A stretch of 64,000 nucleotides of DNA. Origin: a virus (Duplodnaviria; Heunggongvirae; Uroviricota; Caudoviricetes). The notes beneath the pieces were generated by a model. It was given only the letters and a program-made list of their open reading frames with translations, was not told the origin of the DNA and ran no database searches. Location of the stretch: positions 1-64,000 of IMG/VR virus record IMGVR_UViG_2513237361_000012; one strand, given 5' to 3'. The position numbers and the translations under genes were made by a program. Shown here piece by piece: positions 1-51,342 of the stretch (the stretch's first letter is position 1; the number at the start of each line of letters is the position of its first letter).

Positions 1-318
1 TTATTGATTAAATGGCGCTTCGTGTTTAAGAACTTTATCGATAATGTCCAGTACGCCTTCATGGTTATTGGAGCCTGCACGGTATTTCGCCGCCGCTACG
101 ACTGCGTTGCCAGCATTTTCCATTGCAAAGCTAAAGCCCGCCTGACGCAGCATCTCAATATCATTACCGCCATCGCCAAAAACCACCACTTCGCTGTCGT
201 CTATGTCCCATAATTTCTGGAGTTGACGCAGGCCATTGGCTTTATGTACGCCGGGGATAATCAAATCGATACTACCGTTGCCGGTATGGACTGGCACCAT
301 AATATCTAAAGCGCGCAA
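1..318 (-). pseudogene. ybjI: HAD/Cof-type phosphatase gene, 3' portion (gene split by prophage insertion)
   Basis: Translation carries HAD motif (FGDGGNDIEM); matching 5' portion lies at 36250-36771; frame runs straight into prophage end. Confidence 0.8.
302..306. repeat. 5-bp target-site duplication (ATATC), copy 1
   Basis: ATATC at 302-306 and 36254-36258; codons GAT-AT (Asp-Ile) appear at the end of the 5' fragment and the start of the 3' fragment of the split HAD gene. Confidence 0.6.
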
Positions 319-323
319 AATTA

Positions 324-389
324 TTCAAGATAGATATGGAATTCTTTCAAGATAAGCCAGAAGCGCACATATGGAAGTTATTCAAGATA
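324..389 (+). repeat. Terminal repeat array, 3 x TTCAAGATA (mom-proximal end), candidate transposase binding sites
   Basis: TTCAAGATA at 324-332, 346-354, 381-389; same 9-mer in inverted orientation three times at the other prophage end. Confidence 0.55.
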
Positions 390-432
390 AAACAGCGGCA
401 TTGGCCGCTGCTTTTTTATTCATTAAGTGGGC

Positions 433-1170
433 TCACTTCGGGTATGGCTGAACCCTGAATAGCTTGGTGTTTAGGCGCTTTTTTGCGCGCTTATTCAGGA
501 ATCTGATGTAGCGATACTGATTAAATTTGTGTACCACGGCCCGCTCCTTATTAGCCCGCAAATACACACCTCGTTGCCCTCCGCGCTTAATCGCGTTCAT
601 CGCTATCTCGTGATACCACTCGCCGTCCAGTTCGTAGAACGTGCTTTCGTGGCTGCCTATAAAATCAAAATTCGACGCCTGATATACCACGCCAGCACGT
701 CCGCAGCGTTCATCTGCAAAGGACTGAACCCACTCCACTGACGGGTACAGTAACCTGATGGTTTTCAGCGCGTAGCTGATGGCCCGTGATTCAGAATTGC
801 GGGGCATGTCGTCGTGTAGCCACATGCGGTTCAGTTCCATATAGCCCCGGTTATCCGTTTCCAGCACAACACGACGCCCTGAGCTGGGGTTAAGGGCATA
901 TCCCCACTGAAGAACGCCAACCAGATCACGTCCGCTGAATACGCCCAGATGCAGGTAGGAGTTATTCACAAAACGGCGGGAATAGTGTTTTGTCTGAATG
1001 ATTGTGCGGGCCAGCCAGCAGGATATGGTTTCAACGCGCAGCTCCTTTGAACCATAGCCGACAATCCGGCCTTCATACTCAATAACGCAGGGTTTTGTCA
1101 GAATGCGTGATTTCTTCTCTTTTCCCACAATACAGCTCCGTGGGATGCTCTTTGGCATTCGATATGACAA
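433..1170 (-). CDS. mom: Mom DNA-modification protein (start codon uncertain)
   Basis: Translation matches the phage Mu Mom protein from memory; sits at distal prophage end directly downstream of and overlapping com. Confidence 0.8.
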
Positions 1171-1264
1171 TGTAACGTTTACAGCGAGGACATTTTATTT
1201 CTATATGCTTAAAACCTCCTTTAAACAGTAATTTATTGCAGTTTTTACAGCGAACAGAGTCCAT
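1079..1264 (-). CDS. com: Com zinc-finger translational activator of mom
   Basis: [16 protein letters not shown]...CPRCKR: Cys4 zinc finger matching Mu Com; overlaps mom start; ORF-track start at 1291 is probably too long. Confidence 0.8.
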
Positions 1265-1336
1265 GATTCCCCCTGTGTAATAACCAGACATGAGCGCCCG
1301 GAGGGCTGGGGGTATTTAATCACAACCGATGCAAAC

Positions 1337-1366
1337 CGACGATCGATATGATGTTATCGATCGTCA
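1337..1366. promoter_or_regulatory. GATC-containing palindrome upstream of com-mom (candidate Dam-sensitive control region)
   Basis: Inverted repeat CGACGATCGATA / TATCGATCGTCA with GATC at 1341-1344 and 1359-1362, about 75-100 bp upstream of com. Confidence 0.45.
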
Positions 1367-1387
1367 TAAACTATACAAACTGATTAT

Positions 1388-9038: not shown

Positions 9039-10099
9039 GTGGCCACCGCCTTTGTTTTCTTCGTCTTCGCTTTCATTTCCGGCATATCCAGTGATTCAGG
9101 CGGAACCAGCGCCAGAACCGTCATCCGCCCCTGTGCGCCATCCGTCCAGGTCACCCCGGATATCAGCCAGGTGGTTTTCAGGTTCTGAATGCTGTCGTCG
9201 ATATCGACAAGGCGGTTGGTCTGCCACAGCGGGCCGCTGTCGCCCTGTTCGCGCCAGCCTGCCACCGTGATTTCCGTCGTGCGGGATTCCCCCAGCATCC
9301 GGGCTTTGTACCATTCCCCGCGAATGCTGGCCCCGCCCACGGTCAGGCTGTCTTCATTGACCAGAATGCGCGGGCGGTAACGGTTAATTTCCGGGTCTTC
9401 GGTGATGTACTGGCGACCACCCACCATCGAGGCAGGCTGGCTGTCCCACAGTTTGCCACCGGCACTGGTGGTGCCCTTGATGATGTACTGGCTGTTACGC
9501 TCCCGCCAGCTGAAGCGCCCACGGGCAGCGAGGATATTTTTCCCCAGCACCAGTGACACACCCGCGCGAACGGAAGAGGCGCGGGTGATAATCAGGTTAC
9601 CTGCGCCGTCAGACGTCAGCAGAACGCCGCGCTGTTTTGCCAGCCGGTCGAGCAGTTCAAAGCCCGTTTCACCCTGTTCCAGAACAACGGACGCAAACGC
9701 CTCCCCGGTCGGGGTTTCCGTGATGACGGTTATCCCGAACGGGCGGCAGACATCAGCCGCCACCTGTTCAAGCCGCACGCCTTTCCATTTCCCGGATGAA
9801 TGCACCACAGAGCAGTCCACCAGGTCACCGGTTTTGTCGCGCCCCATGACGCGGATCTCCACGTTATCTGCGTCATAGCTGGGGATAAAATCATCAATAT
9901 ACCCCGTCAGCACGGTATCCGCGCCCAGCCTGACCGTGCAGGGTTGCCCCTCACGAATCACGCGCGGTGCCGCCGCTGACCAGCGGGTTGTCACACTGAG
10001 ATCAAACTCACCGGCAATCGCCTTCAGGGAACGACTGACGGACATTTCCGTCCAGCCTTCCCACAATTTGCCGTCAACGGTAAGAATCACGGATTCCAT
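9029..10099 (-). CDS. Tail/baseplate protein (Mu P / P2 gpD-like)
   Basis: 356 aa following tape-measure and N-like genes, conserved myovirus order. Confidence 0.6.
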   Translation of the reverse strand: MESVILTVDGKLWEGWTEMSVSRSLKAIAGEFDLSVTTRWSAAAPRVIREGQPCTVRLGADTVLTGYIDDFIPSYDADNVEIRVMGRDKTGDLVDCSVVHSSGKWKGVRLEQVAADVCRPFGITVITETPTGEAFASVVLEQGETGFELLDRLAKQRGVLLTSDGAGNLIITRASSVRAGVSLVLGKNILAARGRFSWRERNSQYIIKGTTSAGGKLWDSQPASMVGGRQYITEDPEINRYRPRILVNEDSLTVGGASIRGEWYKARMLGESRTTEITVAGWREQGDSGPLWQTNRLVDIDDSIQNLKTTWLISGVTWTDGAQGRMTVLALVPPESLDMPEMKAKTKKTKAVATWD

Positions 10100-10350
10100 C
10101 AGTCGGTAATCTCCACAGGTTGCGTTGGCAGTATGAATGACGGATGGCGCAGGCGGTTACGCTGCACGATTTCATCCCGTCGGCTGGTGTCACCATGCTC
10201 GCGCCATGCCAGCAATGCGGCAGATGTGGTTGTGGTCAGCGTCACCTGCCGGGTTTCCGGCAGACGGGCGGCACGCTCGCGGGCATCCGTAATCACGGCC
10301 TGCCGTAAATCGCGCAGCGTTCGCCACAATGCCCGCTGGTTATTTTCCAC
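10099..10350 (-). CDS. Small ORF, either a separate gene or the displaced 3' part of the N-like gene
   Basis: Fills the gap between N-like ORF and next gene; frames would join with +1 nt in the G4/C4 run at 10350-10353. Confidence 0.3.
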   Translation of the reverse strand: MENNQRALWRTLRDLRQAVITDARERAARLPETRQVTLTTTTSAALLAWREHGDTSRRDEIVQRNRLRHPSFILPTQPVEITD

Positions 10351-11372
10351 CCCGCCACCGCCTGCTCATGCAGTTCAGCCGCCAGCGTGTCACCGGCAGA
10401 TAATGCCGCATCACTGGTATCGAACGTCATCGAGGCCACGGCATTTGCCTGTCCCAGCAGGGTTTCCAGCACAACCACCTGGCGGAAGTCGTCAATGTTC
10501 TTCTGCAGGCTGTCAGATACCGGCTGATAATCCGGTGACAGCCCGATAGCAAAGCCTATTTCACCGTCTGCCACGCTGCCGGGCTTCACGGTGATATCTT
10601 CCGGCAGTGCGCCGGTGGCAACCTGTCGGGCACGTTCTCCGGCCCACTGGTTGCGTAATGTCGTGTAAACCGCCAGTGCTTCGGGTGGTTCCGTCACCAG
10701 ATCAACCACGCCGTCGATGAACGAGAACAGCTCACTGACCAGACGCCCCGGTGTGGCAATGATGGTTCCGGCCATCTCCTTAAAATGGTTCAGCCTGTCC
10801 ATCCACTGATTCAGTGCTGCCGGTAACGTGGGCAGGTTAGCCACAAGGTTTTCCATATCGGCCAGAAAGCTGTCGGCCATCTCACCCAACCCGTCGAGTG
10901 CGCCGAACCAGTCGCCATCGTCAATGGCGGCTTTCACCGCATCAATGCCCGTCAGCACTTCCTGCTGCGTGTTATCCGCCGCAGACGGGAACAGGCGCTC
11001 GCCTGCCTCAAACACTTCAAAAGTGACATACGCAATGCCGTCTTCCTCCGTGCTGAGGCGATGGGTGACCTTGCCAACCTGTACGGTCTGTATCCCGAAC
11101 CACGGGTGGATAAGCTCGCCGGGGCCGGGGGTATTGAGCGCGTCTAAAAGGGCGTTTAAATCATCCTGGAAGTTTTTACCCAGCAGCTTTGCGTTAATCT
11201 GCTGTTGACCGGGAACGGCCCCGTTATCATCAGTCCAGGCGGTTTCACGCCGGGGATACGCGCGGGGAATAGCCCTGCGGCCACCGGTGCCTTCCGTATC
11301 CACCAGAAAGAAGGGGACACCGCGAAACGAGGCATCGCGCAGCCCGTCCCATTTGCCGTTACTCATTGTCAT
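10293..11372 (-). CDS. DNA circularization protein N-like
   Basis: 359 aa immediately downstream of tape measure, Mu gene order. Confidence 0.55.
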   Translation of the reverse strand: MTMSNGKWDGLRDASFRGVPFFLVDTEGTGGRRAIPRAYPRRETAWTDDNGAVPGQQQINAKLLGKNFQDDLNALLDALNTPGPGELIHPWFGIQTVQVGKVTHRLSTEEDGIAYVTFEVFEAGERLFPSAADNTQQEVLTGIDAVKAAIDDGDWFGALDGLGEMADSFLADMENLVANLPTLPAALNQWMDRLNHFKEMAGTIIATPGRLVSELFSFIDGVVDLVTEPPEALAVYTTLRNQWAGERARQVATGALPEDITVKPGSVADGEIGFAIGLSPDYQPVSDSLQKNIDDFRQVVVLETLLGQANAVASMTFDTSDAALSAGDTLAAELHEQAVAGWKITSGHCGERCAIYGRP

Positions 11373-19610: not shown

Positions 19611-19641
19611 AGAAAAAAAGCCGGATTTACCGGCTTCACTG
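19611..19641 (-). terminator. Rho-independent terminator-like hairpin
   Basis: AAGCCGG-ATTTA-CCGGCTT stem-loop followed by T-run on minus strand; identical element at 27343-27372. Confidence 0.5.
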
Positions 19642-27342: not shown

Positions 27343-27372
27343 CATAAAAAAAGCCGGATTTACCGGCTTCAT
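27343..27372 (-). terminator. Rho-independent terminator-like hairpin
   Basis: Same AAGCCGGATTTACCGGCTT hairpin plus T-run as at 19611-19641, directly after mor. Confidence 0.5.
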
Positions 27373-27375
27373 TGA

Positions 27376-27825
27376 TTAAGGGCGTCGTGGCGGACGACGA
27401 ACGGGATGAGGCAGATTCGGGGAGTGGTAAAACAAATCCGGCTGGTATTTATTACGCTCCAGACGTCGCATCCGTTTGATGGCCTTGTAGACAGTTTTAT
27501 ATGTCACTCCGTAACGCTGAACCAGTTCAGGAATATTATGGCCGTTAAAATCACGCCAGATACGCATATCCCGGACAAGATTCTCCAGAATATTCCCCCT
27601 CGGAACATAAACCTGCATCCCGCCGATATGGCGACAAATCGCCACAACCAGCTCAAGGGAATGGGCAGGGTCTGCGCCAATCCGGGCCAGCTCTTTACGC
27701 AGCAGTGCGTTCAGTTCAGAAAGTAACGCCGGATAAGCGGTGTTTTCCTGATAATCATGAAGGTATTCCAGAACGCTGTCGTCCCGGAGGTCTTCGAATA
27801 AATCCTGCTCTTTCATCTGTTTCAT
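27376..27825 (-). CDS. mor: Middle operon regulator Mor-like
   Basis: 149 aa, position after gemA, Mu Mor-like. Confidence 0.65.
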   Translation of the reverse strand: MKQMKEQDLFEDLRDDSVLEYLHDYQENTAYPALLSELNALLRKELARIGADPAHSLELVVAICRHIGGMQVYVPRGNILENLVRDMRIWRDFNGHNIPELVQRYGVTYKTVYKAIKRMRRLERNKYQPDLFYHSPNLPHPVRRPPRRP

Positions 27826-43615: not shown

Positions 43616-43842
43616 TGGCTGATGCAATGGATCTCGTACAGCAGCGCGTTGAAGAAGAACGCCAGCGCCATATCCGTGCTGCCCGTGCCAAAACACCGGG
43701 CGTGTCTCGCGTGCTTTGCATTGAGTGTGAAGCGCCAATTCCGCCAGCACGCCGCCGTGCCATTCCGGGTGTGCAGCTTTGCATTACCTGCCAGGAAATT
43801 GCAGAGCTGAAAGGCAAACATTACAACGGAGGTGCTGTATGA
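43615..43842 (+). CDS. TraR/DksA-family zinc-finger protein
   Basis: CIECEAPIP...CITCQ four-Cys motif; overlaps dam start by ATGA. Confidence 0.6.
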   Translation: MADAMDLVQQRVEEERQRHIRAARAKTPGVSRVLCIECEAPIPPARRRAIPGVQLCITCQEIAELKGKHYNGGAV

Positions 43843-44696
43843 GCACCATTCTGAAATGGGCGGGTAATAAAACCGCCATTATGTCCGAACTGAAAAAATA
43901 CCTTCCTGCTGGCCCGCGACTGGTTGAACCTTTCGCGGGTTCTTGTGCTGTGATGATAGAGACGGATTACCCCAGCTATCTTGTTGCGGATATTAATCCT
44001 GATTTAATCAACCTCTATAAAAAGGTTGCTGCTGATTGCGAGGCGTTTATATCTCGTGCCAGAGCTTTATTTGAGGAAGCAAACAGTGAGCTGGCTTATT
44101 ACAACATAAGGCAGGAGTTTAATTACTCAACTGAAATTACTGATTTCATGAAAGCGGTATATTTCCTGTATCTCAATCGTCACGGTTACCGTGGGTTATG
44201 TCGCTATAACAAGAGCGGGTATTTCAACATTCCCTACGGTAATTATAAAAATCCGTATTTCCCTGAAAAAGAAATTCGCGCATTTGCAGAGAAAGCCCAG
44301 CGATCAACGTTTATCTGCGCCAGCTTTGATGAAACGCTGGCGATGCTGCAGGTGGGGGATGTGGTGTATTGCGATCCGCCTTATGACGGTACGTTTTCCG
44401 GTTATCACACTGACGGCTTCACTGAAGATGACCAGTATCACCTGGCATCCGTTCTTGAACATCGGTCATCAGAAGGACATCCCGTCATTGTTTCTAACAG
44501 TGACACATCCCTGATCCGTTCGCTGTATCGCAATTTTACTCACCACTACATCAAGGCAAAACGCAGCATCAGTGTGGCAGCTGGTGATAGTAAATCTGCA
44601 ACAGAAATCATTGCTGTTTCCGGGGCGCGCTGCTGGGTGGGATTTGATCCTTCGCGTGGCGTAGATAGTTCTGCTGTGTACGAGGTGCGTGTATGA
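43839..44696 (+). CDS. dam: DNA adenine methyltransferase (Dam-like, N6-A MTase)
   Basis: N-terminal KWAGNK...PFAGS (SAM binding) and DPPY catalytic motif. Confidence 0.85.
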
Positions 44697-47870: not shown

Positions 47871-48929
47871 TTAATTTTCAATTCCCTCCATTTTACAATG
47901 AGTTTTTTCCCAGAACTGTAATACAACAGGACTAGCCCACTCTGGCATCAGTGCGTTATTTAAAAAACTGAAAACATCATGAGACGCATCAGCATTTTTT
48001 CTAAGGAATTTCCAGCCTTTTCTAGTATTTATCTCAACAATACCTAACCCACCATCATCAAACATATGCATCTTGAATTCAGGATTGTTTACACCTAGAG
48101 ATTTTATTTCTTTTATGTATGGACTATCTTCATCCATAAATATTTTCTCTATGTGCTTAGCACAATGATATATTTTATTTCGATAAGTTGATACGCTCAC
48201 AGCGGTACGCGCTGTTGTTATTCCCATTCCTAATGGGGCATATGCTTTTCCATCCATCACTACGGGCAGATTTATTCCATTTTTTCTTAAGTTTGCAATA
48301 TCTGAATCTGTAGTTGGATGAATACAAGCTAAGCCTGAAATACCTTTCATTTCAAATATTTCTGCTGCTTCTGGCCAGTTGCGTATGAATGTTTCTACCA
48401 AATCTCTTTGAGAAAAAAGATTTGGTTCTATGTTTTTATCATGATGTTTTATATCAATAAAAAGCACAGCGTTTGAGTACACCTTCAGGAATAATACCCA
48501 CTCAGCACGATCTGAGTATTTTTTACTTGAACTTACTGGATTTAATGGCAGATGGAGGTGATGAATCCCCCAATCAGCCCATAGGTTATCCGTTCTTTTC
48601 GTCGCCTTTTTACCGCTTGTGTCATTGAATAATGTTAATGTTTTACTCTGATAAGGATTTACATCACCACCAGTAGTAAACAACATCTCGATTCTCTGCA
48701 ATCCAACCCTTGCGCCATCGTGAATATTTTCAGGAAATCGATCTGATTTTAAAATTATTCGTTTTTGTGGAACAATGTAGCGTAAAAGAAAATCACACCA
48801 CCTCAGTAGAGGATCGTGAAGATTTGAGTGCCCGGATTCATCATATAATAACCCAAATGCTTGAATTCCCTTCTCTGAAATTTCGTCAATATCTTTGATT
48901 AGATTAATATTTTTTCGTGCGTCCAACAT
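47871..48929 (-). CDS. Hypothetical 352-aa protein, accessory cargo
   Basis: Long uninterrupted AT-rich ORF between tum-like gene and cos/retron; no family recognised by eye. Confidence 0.6.
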   Translation of the reverse strand: MLDARKNINLIKDIDEISEKGIQAFGLLYDESGHSNLHDPLLRWCDFLLRYIVPQKRIILKSDRFPENIHDGARVGLQRIEMLFTTGGDVNPYQSKTLTLFNDTSGKKATKRTDNLWADWGIHHLHLPLNPVSSSKKYSDRAEWVLFLKVYSNAVLFIDIKHHDKNIEPNLFSQRDLVETFIRNWPEAAEIFEMKGISGLACIHPTTDSDIANLRKNGINLPVVMDGKAYAPLGMGITTARTAVSVSTYRNKIYHCAKHIEKIFMDEDSPYIKEIKSLGVNNPEFKMHMFDDGGLGIVEINTRKGWKFLRKNADASHDVFSFLNNALMPEWASPVVLQFWEKTHCKMEGIEN

Positions 48930-49323
48930 ACTAACTCCGTTTAAATATAATTTTTTAGTATTTCAGTTAATTAATATCTATACGCCGTTATAGCTGAATT
49001 TTCCGGTGATTTCAGGGCACATTAACCAATTTAGATAATACTATAGTAATGGTTGGGCTGATTTTTCAAGAACAAAAGTAATTTTCAAGCTTTGTAACAT
49101 GTTGATTTTCCACTTTTCGCTCAAGCGAGCTTTCATCTTTGCAAGCCCATATGTTCGTTTTTCAAGCGATTATTCAGATACGTTAACTTCCCATGGCAGT
49201 GCATGACTATGCTGCATGAAATCGCATGATCGATCGAGGATCGTCTATGCTTAGACCAGCCAGAAATGGCGGGCTTTTGCTCATGTCATGCAGCTGCATG
49301 AAAACCACTGCATAAAGTGGGCA

Positions 49324-49342
49324 GGCGTGGCGGGGATACGAG
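49324..49342. other. cos-like cohesive-end site
   Basis: GGCGTGGCGGGGA matches the first 13 nt of the 186/P2 cos sequence as I recall it; position between A-side genes and Q. Confidence 0.4.
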
Positions 49343-49412
49343 GGCGCGCTATCACGTAAAATAGGCAAAATACTTCTGGAAAACAGAAAGTTGAAGTGAT
49401 ATGTTCATAAAC

Positions 49413-51342
<1,930 letters not shown>

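Follow-up and report, generated by a model that had tools for sequence, protein, structure and literature searches.

Mom belongs to a classic anti-restriction system, which has recently been re-solved as a tRNA-dependent hypermodification of DNA, and its expression is a textbook example of a multi-layer switch. The window (the whole stretch of 64,000 nucleotides that was analysed) contains a com-mom pair near its beginning, preceded by a palindrome with two GATC sites. This raises the question of whether the pair is controlled as in phage Mu, by Dam methylation at the level of transcription and by Com at the level of translation, as the original prediction had proposed. That prediction had not placed the genes within a Mu-like prophage. 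The locus is the known anti-restriction com-mom operon, as had been said, and it forms the right end of a Mu-like transposable prophage.

We delimited this prophage to positions 307-36253 (36 kb). It is inserted in the host gene ybjI, with a 5-bp target duplication (ATATC) at 302-306 and 36254-36258, and it encodes MuA, MuB, Ner, a repressor, Gam, GemA, Mor and Mu-type head and tail proteins. Three TTCAAGATA repeats are present at each end (307-400 and 36100-36253), in inverted orientation, and the terminus reads ...GCGCTTTA instead of ...GCTTCA as in Mu; this type of end is common to other IMG/VR prophages. Identity with Mu at the DNA level (88.8%) was confined to 408-1254, the rest of the prophage not being Mu-like by this measure. 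The gin gene and the G segment are absent, and com is directly preceded by a DUF4376 tail-fibre assembly gene (1388-1963). Some IMG/VR contigs were observed to combine the same type of end with a Mu-type com-mom promoter and the C gene. Therefore, the ends, the activator and the type of mom promoter assort independently.

The host flanks (ybjI-ybjJ-rcdA) are about 90-93% identical to E. coli, and the host is for this reason probably an Escherichia other than E. coli. Between rcdA and the integrase of a second, 186-like prophage there is a DUF4917 gene (PADLOC candidate PDC-S21; 38837-39820, minus strand), an arrangement that recurs in a few genomes of E. coli. Within the Mu-like prophage, gene N (DNA-circularization or baseplate-hub protein) is split at 10340-10360 on the minus strand into open reading frames 10293..11372 and 10099..10350. 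The split results from a 1-nt deletion, which changes GGCGGCGGTGG to GGCGG-GGTGG as judged from an E. coli prophage and an IMG/VR relative. The frameshift may mean that the prophage is defective or decaying, or it may be a sequencing error.

The features of the locus are collected in Table 1, together with the regulatory genes and sites found elsewhere in the window. We consider it likely that positions 307-1375 make up a right-end cassette, in which an OxyR/Dam control site and a weak promoter region are followed by com and mom and then by a terminator and the transposase-binding end. The coordinates and minus-strand orientation previously assigned to com and mom were confirmed, as was their overlap, which amounts to 50 nt if mom starts at the GTG and to 80 nt if it starts at the ATG.

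Table 1. Positions of the elements of the com-mom cassette and of the related regulatory genes and sites in the window
Feature	Position	Strand	Description	Basis
Right end of prophage	307..432		three TTCAAGATA repeats (324, 346, 381), terminator hairpin of the mom operon (393-410), terminal ...GCGCTTTA	
mom open reading frame	433-1170	-		
mom	433..1128	-	231 aa from GTG at 1128, equivalent to the annotated Mu start; alternative in-frame ATG at 1158 gives 241 aa	Pfam Mom PF25680
com	1079..1264	-	61 aa, ATG at 1264, stop 1079-1081; overlaps mom 5' end	Pfam Zn_ribbon_Com
Predicted translation-inhibition stem-loop	1124..1144	-	CCCACGG / UUGUGGG	RNA fold; stem identical to Mu in DNA alignment
Predicted Com-binding RNA hairpin	1145..1158	-	AUGC-CAAAGA-GCAU with CC(N3)GAG	RNA fold; architecture as in Mu
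Upstream region, type B variant	1265..1337	-	promoter-proximal	alignment with Mu; conservation profile of 16 type B sequences
com Shine-Dalgarno	1269-1273	-	GGGGG	
Weak -10 candidate	1285-1290	-	TGTCTG, inside variable stretch	
G+C dyad	within 1265..1337	-	GCCCTCCGGGC	
Conserved box	1306-1324	-	TGTGATTAAATACCCCCAG	
Degenerate third site	1328-1331	-	CATC	
Inverted repeat with GATC pair	1338..1365		GACGATCGATA-N6-TATCGATCGTC; arms 1338-1348 / 1355-1365	
TATAG	1371..1375	-	upstream edge of conserved cassette	ATAG invariant in window, Mu and agn43
Mor site, identical copy	19613-19636	-	AAGCCGGTAAATCCGGCTTTTTTT; upstream of head protease gene	
Mor site, Mu-Pm type	27346..27369	-	AAGCCGGTAAATCCGGCTTTTTTT; upstream of endolysin gene / lysis operon	
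Mor orthologue	27376..27825	-	only Mor/C-family gene in prophage	Pfam Mor E=3.6e-30
Dam-family adenine methyltransferase	43839..44696	+	in 186-like retron-carrying prophage	

Previous work has shown that Mom modifies the N6 of adenine in DNA in a Gly-tRNA(Gly)-dependent manner and that residues H58, Y59, R111, S124, D149, R151, Y159 and W181 (241-aa numbering) are important for catalysis (PMC13219725). The Mom protein of the window matched Pfam PF25680 with E=6e-75 and was 97% identical to Mom of Mu and of SfMu. It differs by only six substitutions, which are conservative, and none of them falls on these eight residues. We infer that it is a Gly-tRNA(Gly)-dependent GNAT enzyme with adenine N6-carbamoylmethyl DNA-modifying activity. 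Com matched its Pfam family with E=2.5e-07 and was 74% identical to its Mu counterpart, with the four zinc cysteines (CCCC) invariant; it is a putative zinc-ribbon translational activator of mom. The Pfam matches and the identity with Mu thus agreed with the genes having been named com and mom, and both reading frames are intact.

The RNA elements around the start of mom also resemble those of Mu. The predicted Com hairpin carries the CC(N)2-3GAG loop motif that has been defined as the Com target (PMC6483171), and it is directly followed by a stem that, in the fold, sequesters the GGAG Shine-Dalgarno sequence (1136-1139) and the GUG start (1126-1128) of mom, as in the translation-inhibition model described in the same study. 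The fold energy was not significant by itself (z = -0.42). The stems were retained, with other loops, in Scandinavium, an Enterobacteriaceae and Apirhabdus.

To compare the region upstream of com, we used Mom loci from IMG/VR (45) and from other genera (3), together with those of Mu and SfMu. The palindrome of the window proved to be a perfect repeat, with arms of 11 nt that are 100% complementary and a 6-nt spacer. It sits 74-101 bp upstream of com, in line with the earlier estimate of about 75-100 bp, and its GATC sites (1341 and 1359) are 98 and 80 nt upstream of the ATG of com. The comparison with the mom regulatory region of Mu, which had been proposed as a check, showed that the palindrome aligns base for base with GATC sites 1 and 2 of Mu, with an equal spacing of 18 bp, and that the motif GACGATCGA-N9-ATCGATCG is conserved with identical spacing. 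In a three-way alignment that also included the regulatory region of agn43 of E. coli K-12, which is a proven OxyR/Dam switch, ATAG, ACGATC and ATCGATCG were invariant. Two PvuI sites 18 bp apart have been mentioned in Pmom (PMC3378877), and transcription of Mu mom is Dam-dependent since OxyR binds the unmethylated region (PMC3378877; PMC2909390); the regulation of Mu mom is further described in PMC4461284. The palindrome is the homologue of GATC sites 1 and 2 of Mu, and as such a presumed target of Dam and binding site of OxyR, so that com-mom of the window would also depend on both proteins.

GATC counts do not by themselves single out this pair. The Mu-like prophage contains 53 GATC sites, one per 678 bp, and about 1.5 pairs as close as this one are expected among them; the argument that the pair is not random comes from its homology with the Mu sites and its conservation, not from density. 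We also scored the site against a simple OxyR consensus. The window site reached 12/20, a value attained by 14% of shuffles, and the proven Mu site reached only 13. Such scoring does not discriminate even for Mu and was therefore dropped.

Conservation was more informative. Among 16 distinct upstream sequences of the window type (type B) and 14 distinct sequences of the Mu type (type A), the palindrome was the most conserved intergenic block. In each family, TATAG, whose distance to the first GATC downstream is 12 nt, marked an abrupt onset of conservation, from which it follows that the mobile unit starts with the control site. Nearly all collected loci had two or three GATCs upstream of com, spaced by about 18 bp and then 13 bp, and only one of the versions examined lacked a pair about 18 bp apart. 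Two-GATC versions were also found in L004 and L048. In most of the divergent lineages (including Scandinavium, an Enterobacteriaceae, Apirhabdus and the remaining types from IMG/VR) GATC clusters with 18/19-bp and 13-bp spacings were again found upstream of com, in flanks that had diverged.

Between the palindrome and com, the region differed from that of Mu. The upstream regions fell into type A, type B and a few others. Type A (22 loci) has three GATCs, a C site (TTATGCCCCAATAA), a T6 spacer and a TAAGAT -10 sequence. Type B, to which the window belongs (17 IMG/VR loci, with the 16 distinct sequences mentioned above), has two GATCs that form the perfect palindrome. The third GATC of Mu is replaced by GCATCG, and TGTGATTAAATACCCCCAG-GCCCTCCGGGC and a variable stretch stand in place of the C site and promoter core, the region being 11 bp shorter than in Mu. 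Accordingly, neither the C-binding site (TTAT-N6-ATAA, centred near -43.5) nor the T6 spacer nor the TAAGAT -10 was found upstream of com in the window, where we observed TTGTGATTAAATAC...GCCCTCCGGGC...TGTCTG instead. Among type B sequences, the GATC region and the box were invariant while the spacer was variable, and type B was also found in E. coli genomes that differ in insertion site and type of end. The -10 candidate of the window (TGTCTG) is poorer than the corresponding sequences of sister type B loci (TATCTG or TATCCT). A scan from the tail-fibre assembly gene to com detected neither a consensus sigma-70 promoter nor a minus-strand terminator.

The C gene itself showed the same partition. 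Among contigs of at least 30 kb, we found Mu C in 7 of 7 with a type A region versus 0 of 7 with a type B region, in a scan that detects only fairly close relatives of C. Likewise, the annotation of another type B prophage, that of E. coli ETEC1732, contains just one gene of the Mor family. Type B is thus a coherent natural variant without the C layer of control. In the window, tblastn with Mu C matched the Mor orthologue alone. The small open reading frames from Mor to the terminase genes yielded no further Mor/C-like gene with Pfam, their matches being to a TraR/DksA zinc finger, DUF2730, gp27 and the like. The Mor orthologue is 63% identical to Mor and 32% identical to C of Mu, and its recognition helix is of the Mor type. 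We found two exact copies (0 expected) of the 24-bp sequence AAGCCGGTAAATCCGGCTTTTTTT, which is nearly identical to the dyad of Mu Pm. They are located where Mu has its C-dependent promoters Plys and PI. Because Mor sites occupy the positions of C-dependent promoters, the transcription cascade appears to be two-tier, with Mor alone, rather than three-tier. No match to the Mor site was found upstream of com.

The idea of a Mu-style control by Dam and Com was thus supported in part, by the homology of GATC sites 1 and 2 and of the Com elements; the third GATC, the C site and the promoter core of Mu are absent. The transcriptional scheme of Mu cannot be transferred as a whole, because the C site and promoter core have been replaced and the C gene is lacking. 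Our best guess is that com-mom is transcribed from a weak, activator-dependent late promoter located just downstream of the box, with a contribution of read-through from the tail-fibre operon.

We propose the following mechanism by homology to Mu. Host OxyR, whose gene lies outside the window as does host dam, would bind the palindrome when it is unmethylated or hemimethylated and keep the operon off, and methylation of both GATCs by Dam would block OxyR. During lytic growth, the operon would be transcribed and Com would be translated first. Com would then bind its hairpin and open the adjacent stem, which hides the ribosome-binding site and the GUG of mom. Finally, Mom would move glycine from Gly-tRNA(Gly) to the N6 of adenine in double-stranded DNA, yielding N6-carbamoylmethyl-adenine, which would block many restriction enzymes. 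We regard this scheme as probably correct for the window; the identity of the genes, the conservation of the elements, the homology of the GATC sites and the absence of the C gene and C site were observed directly.

Since the promoter is the part that differs most from Mu, we considered other ways in which the cassette could be expressed or silenced. It is conceivable, though rather improbable, that type B represents a C-independent re-wiring, in which the Mor and C tiers have been merged into one Mor activator and the OxyR/Dam gate has been kept, and in which the new element TGTGATTAAATACCCCCAG-GCCCTCCGGGC would be read by some factor or would act as an anti-Shine-Dalgarno sequence silencing com on read-through transcripts. 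If this were true, the smallest working Dam/OxyR unit would consist of a pair of GATCs spaced by 18 bp. Somewhat less likely still, com-mom may have no promoter of its own and be transcribed entirely from the late operon of the tail-fibre genes, the palindrome serving as an RNA hairpin or partial insulator and the box TGATTAAATACCCCC pairing with the ribosome-binding site of com (GGGGGAATCAUG) to damp its translation. Such read-through would fit the finding of neither a sigma-70-like promoter nor a terminator in the interval from the tail-fibre assembly gene to com. As RNA, the palindrome forms a 12-bp stem (-17.9 kcal/mol, z = -2.55). However, this hairpin has no U-tract and was not called in the terminator scan, so that we rejected it as an intrinsic terminator. 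The box (TGATT...CCCCC) is indeed complementary to the Shine-Dalgarno and start region of com (GGGGGAATCAUG; 1262-1330, minus strand), and this pairing is part of the minimum-energy fold. In 12 type B sequences, 98% of the cells were paired and there were eight one-sided changes that preserved pairing, but no compensatory double change, and shuffles attained equal values. An anti-Shine-Dalgarno helix was therefore not retained on the basis of covariation. The fold energy of the leader was also ordinary (z = -0.27), and Rfam scans yielded nothing in 1-2500, nor in the retron region. Moreover, these GATC contexts are also conserved in Mu and agn43, in which they function at the DNA level, and the fact that divergent lineages retain the exact GATCs at a fixed distance is better explained by DNA methylation than by an RNA stem.

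The absence of the C gene and its site, the weak -10 and the frameshift in gene N of this copy could also be taken to mean that the cassette is a silent relic, recombined from a Mu-type phage into a C-less backbone, as its Mu-like DNA in an otherwise dissimilar prophage might suggest. It would then be poorly transcribed, and the palindrome would be conserved by recent ancestry alone. We find this hard to believe, because Mom and Com are intact, with only conservative changes in Mom, and because type B comprises many loci, found in E. coli genomes with varied insertions and ends. Furthermore, the combination of an invariant GATC region and box with a variable spacer indicates constraint rather than drift. 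An OxyR/Dam-gated operon of the Mu kind remains our preferred reading.

We also considered whether the box marks a second late promoter elsewhere in the prophage, by analogy with the P promoter of Mu, which lies inside gene N. The window, as well as an E. coli relative, contains exactly two copies of the box sequence AATACCCCCRGCCC, one upstream of com and the other within gene N. The copy in gene N encodes a conserved peptide (NTPGP), which aligns with approximately residue 100 of Mu N, not with the promoter at residue 364. It varied freely, including non-synonymously, in 21 relatives, and did not co-vary with the box upstream of com. The promoter hypothesis was therefore rejected, and the exact copy (AATACCCCCGGCCC) at 11122-11135 (minus strand) is probably coincidental.

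The original prediction had also pointed out that a co-resident 186-like prophage encodes a Dam-like enzyme, and this was confirmed. The second prophage region (39.9-64 kb) contains an integrase and 186-type CI, CII and gpA genes and is 95% identical to P2-like phages of Klebsiella. Its methyltransferase matched the Pfam D12 class (E=5e-75), NCBIfam Dam (E=5.5e-95) and, over its full length, structures of E. coli Dam (E=6e-73), which makes GATC its likely target. A host Dam is to be expected in Escherichia. The dam gene of the prophage is part of the early lytic operon, with CII on one side and the replication gene A on the other, and should on this account, by analogy with 186, be repressed in the lysogen. 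With a host that is expected to be dam+, and with nothing that links the two prophages, it is very unlikely that the enzyme materially changes the control of mom, in spite of its being a close, full-length homologue of Dam. It is probably redundant with host Dam and may affect mom only in special circumstances. Its occurrence has precedents, since a Dam methylase has been reported for related 186-type prophages of the retron-Ec67 class (PMC7826664, citing Hsu et al. 1990).

The defence cargo of this prophage (47871-51342) is located between gene A and the portal gene and consists of PD-T4-7 (47871..48929, minus strand) and an Ec67-like retron reverse transcriptase of type I-C RT-Toprim (49513..51342); no msr match was found with Rfam. 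Three GATC sites are present within 12 bp (GATCGATCGAGGATC; 49228-49242) in the intergenic stretch upstream of the reverse transcriptase.

For annotation purposes the locus is ordinary and adds no new principle. What it does show is that the OxyR/Dam-com-mom cassette moves as a unit between unrelated Mu-like backbones, and that a widespread variant of it either works without the C activator or is silenced by the absence of C. For those working on Mu, this offers a natural experiment that sets the Dam/OxyR layer against the C layer.

The 186-like prophage resembles those of the retron-Ec67 class and phage 186 in its 186-type CI, CII and gpA genes, its RT-Toprim protein and its Dam-family enzyme; here, however, the latter is separate from com-mom, and an interaction between them is hypothetical. 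Compared with the Mor/Pm system of Mu, Mor is well conserved and two nearly identical dyads are present, but at the Plys and PI positions and not upstream of com. The similarity with agn43 (flu) extends over about 50 bp, with ATAG, ACGATC and ATCGATCG invariant and GATC spacings of 19/13 in agn43, 18/13 in Mu and 18 in the window. In agn43, three GATCs lie downstream of the promoter of a phase-varying gene, whereas here two GATCs lie upstream of the gene in a lytic operon of a phage. The closest known system is the com-mom operon of Mu with its Pmom regulatory region, and also those of D108 and SfMu. The differences with Mu are the degenerate third GATC (GCATCG), the replacement of the C site (TTATGCCCCAATAA), T6 spacer and TAAGAT in a shorter region, the absence of the C gene, gin and the G segment, the DUF4376 tail-fibre assembly gene upstream, and other transposase ends. 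The two share the high identity of Mom and the lower one of Com, the same gene overlap, the Com hairpin, the GUG stem, the terminator and the location at the extreme right end, as well as GATC sites 1 and 2 with their flanks, their 18-bp spacing and the upstream ATAG. Both the system and its place are thus known, and what the present locus adds is a widespread two-GATC, C-less variant whose control site travels with com-mom.
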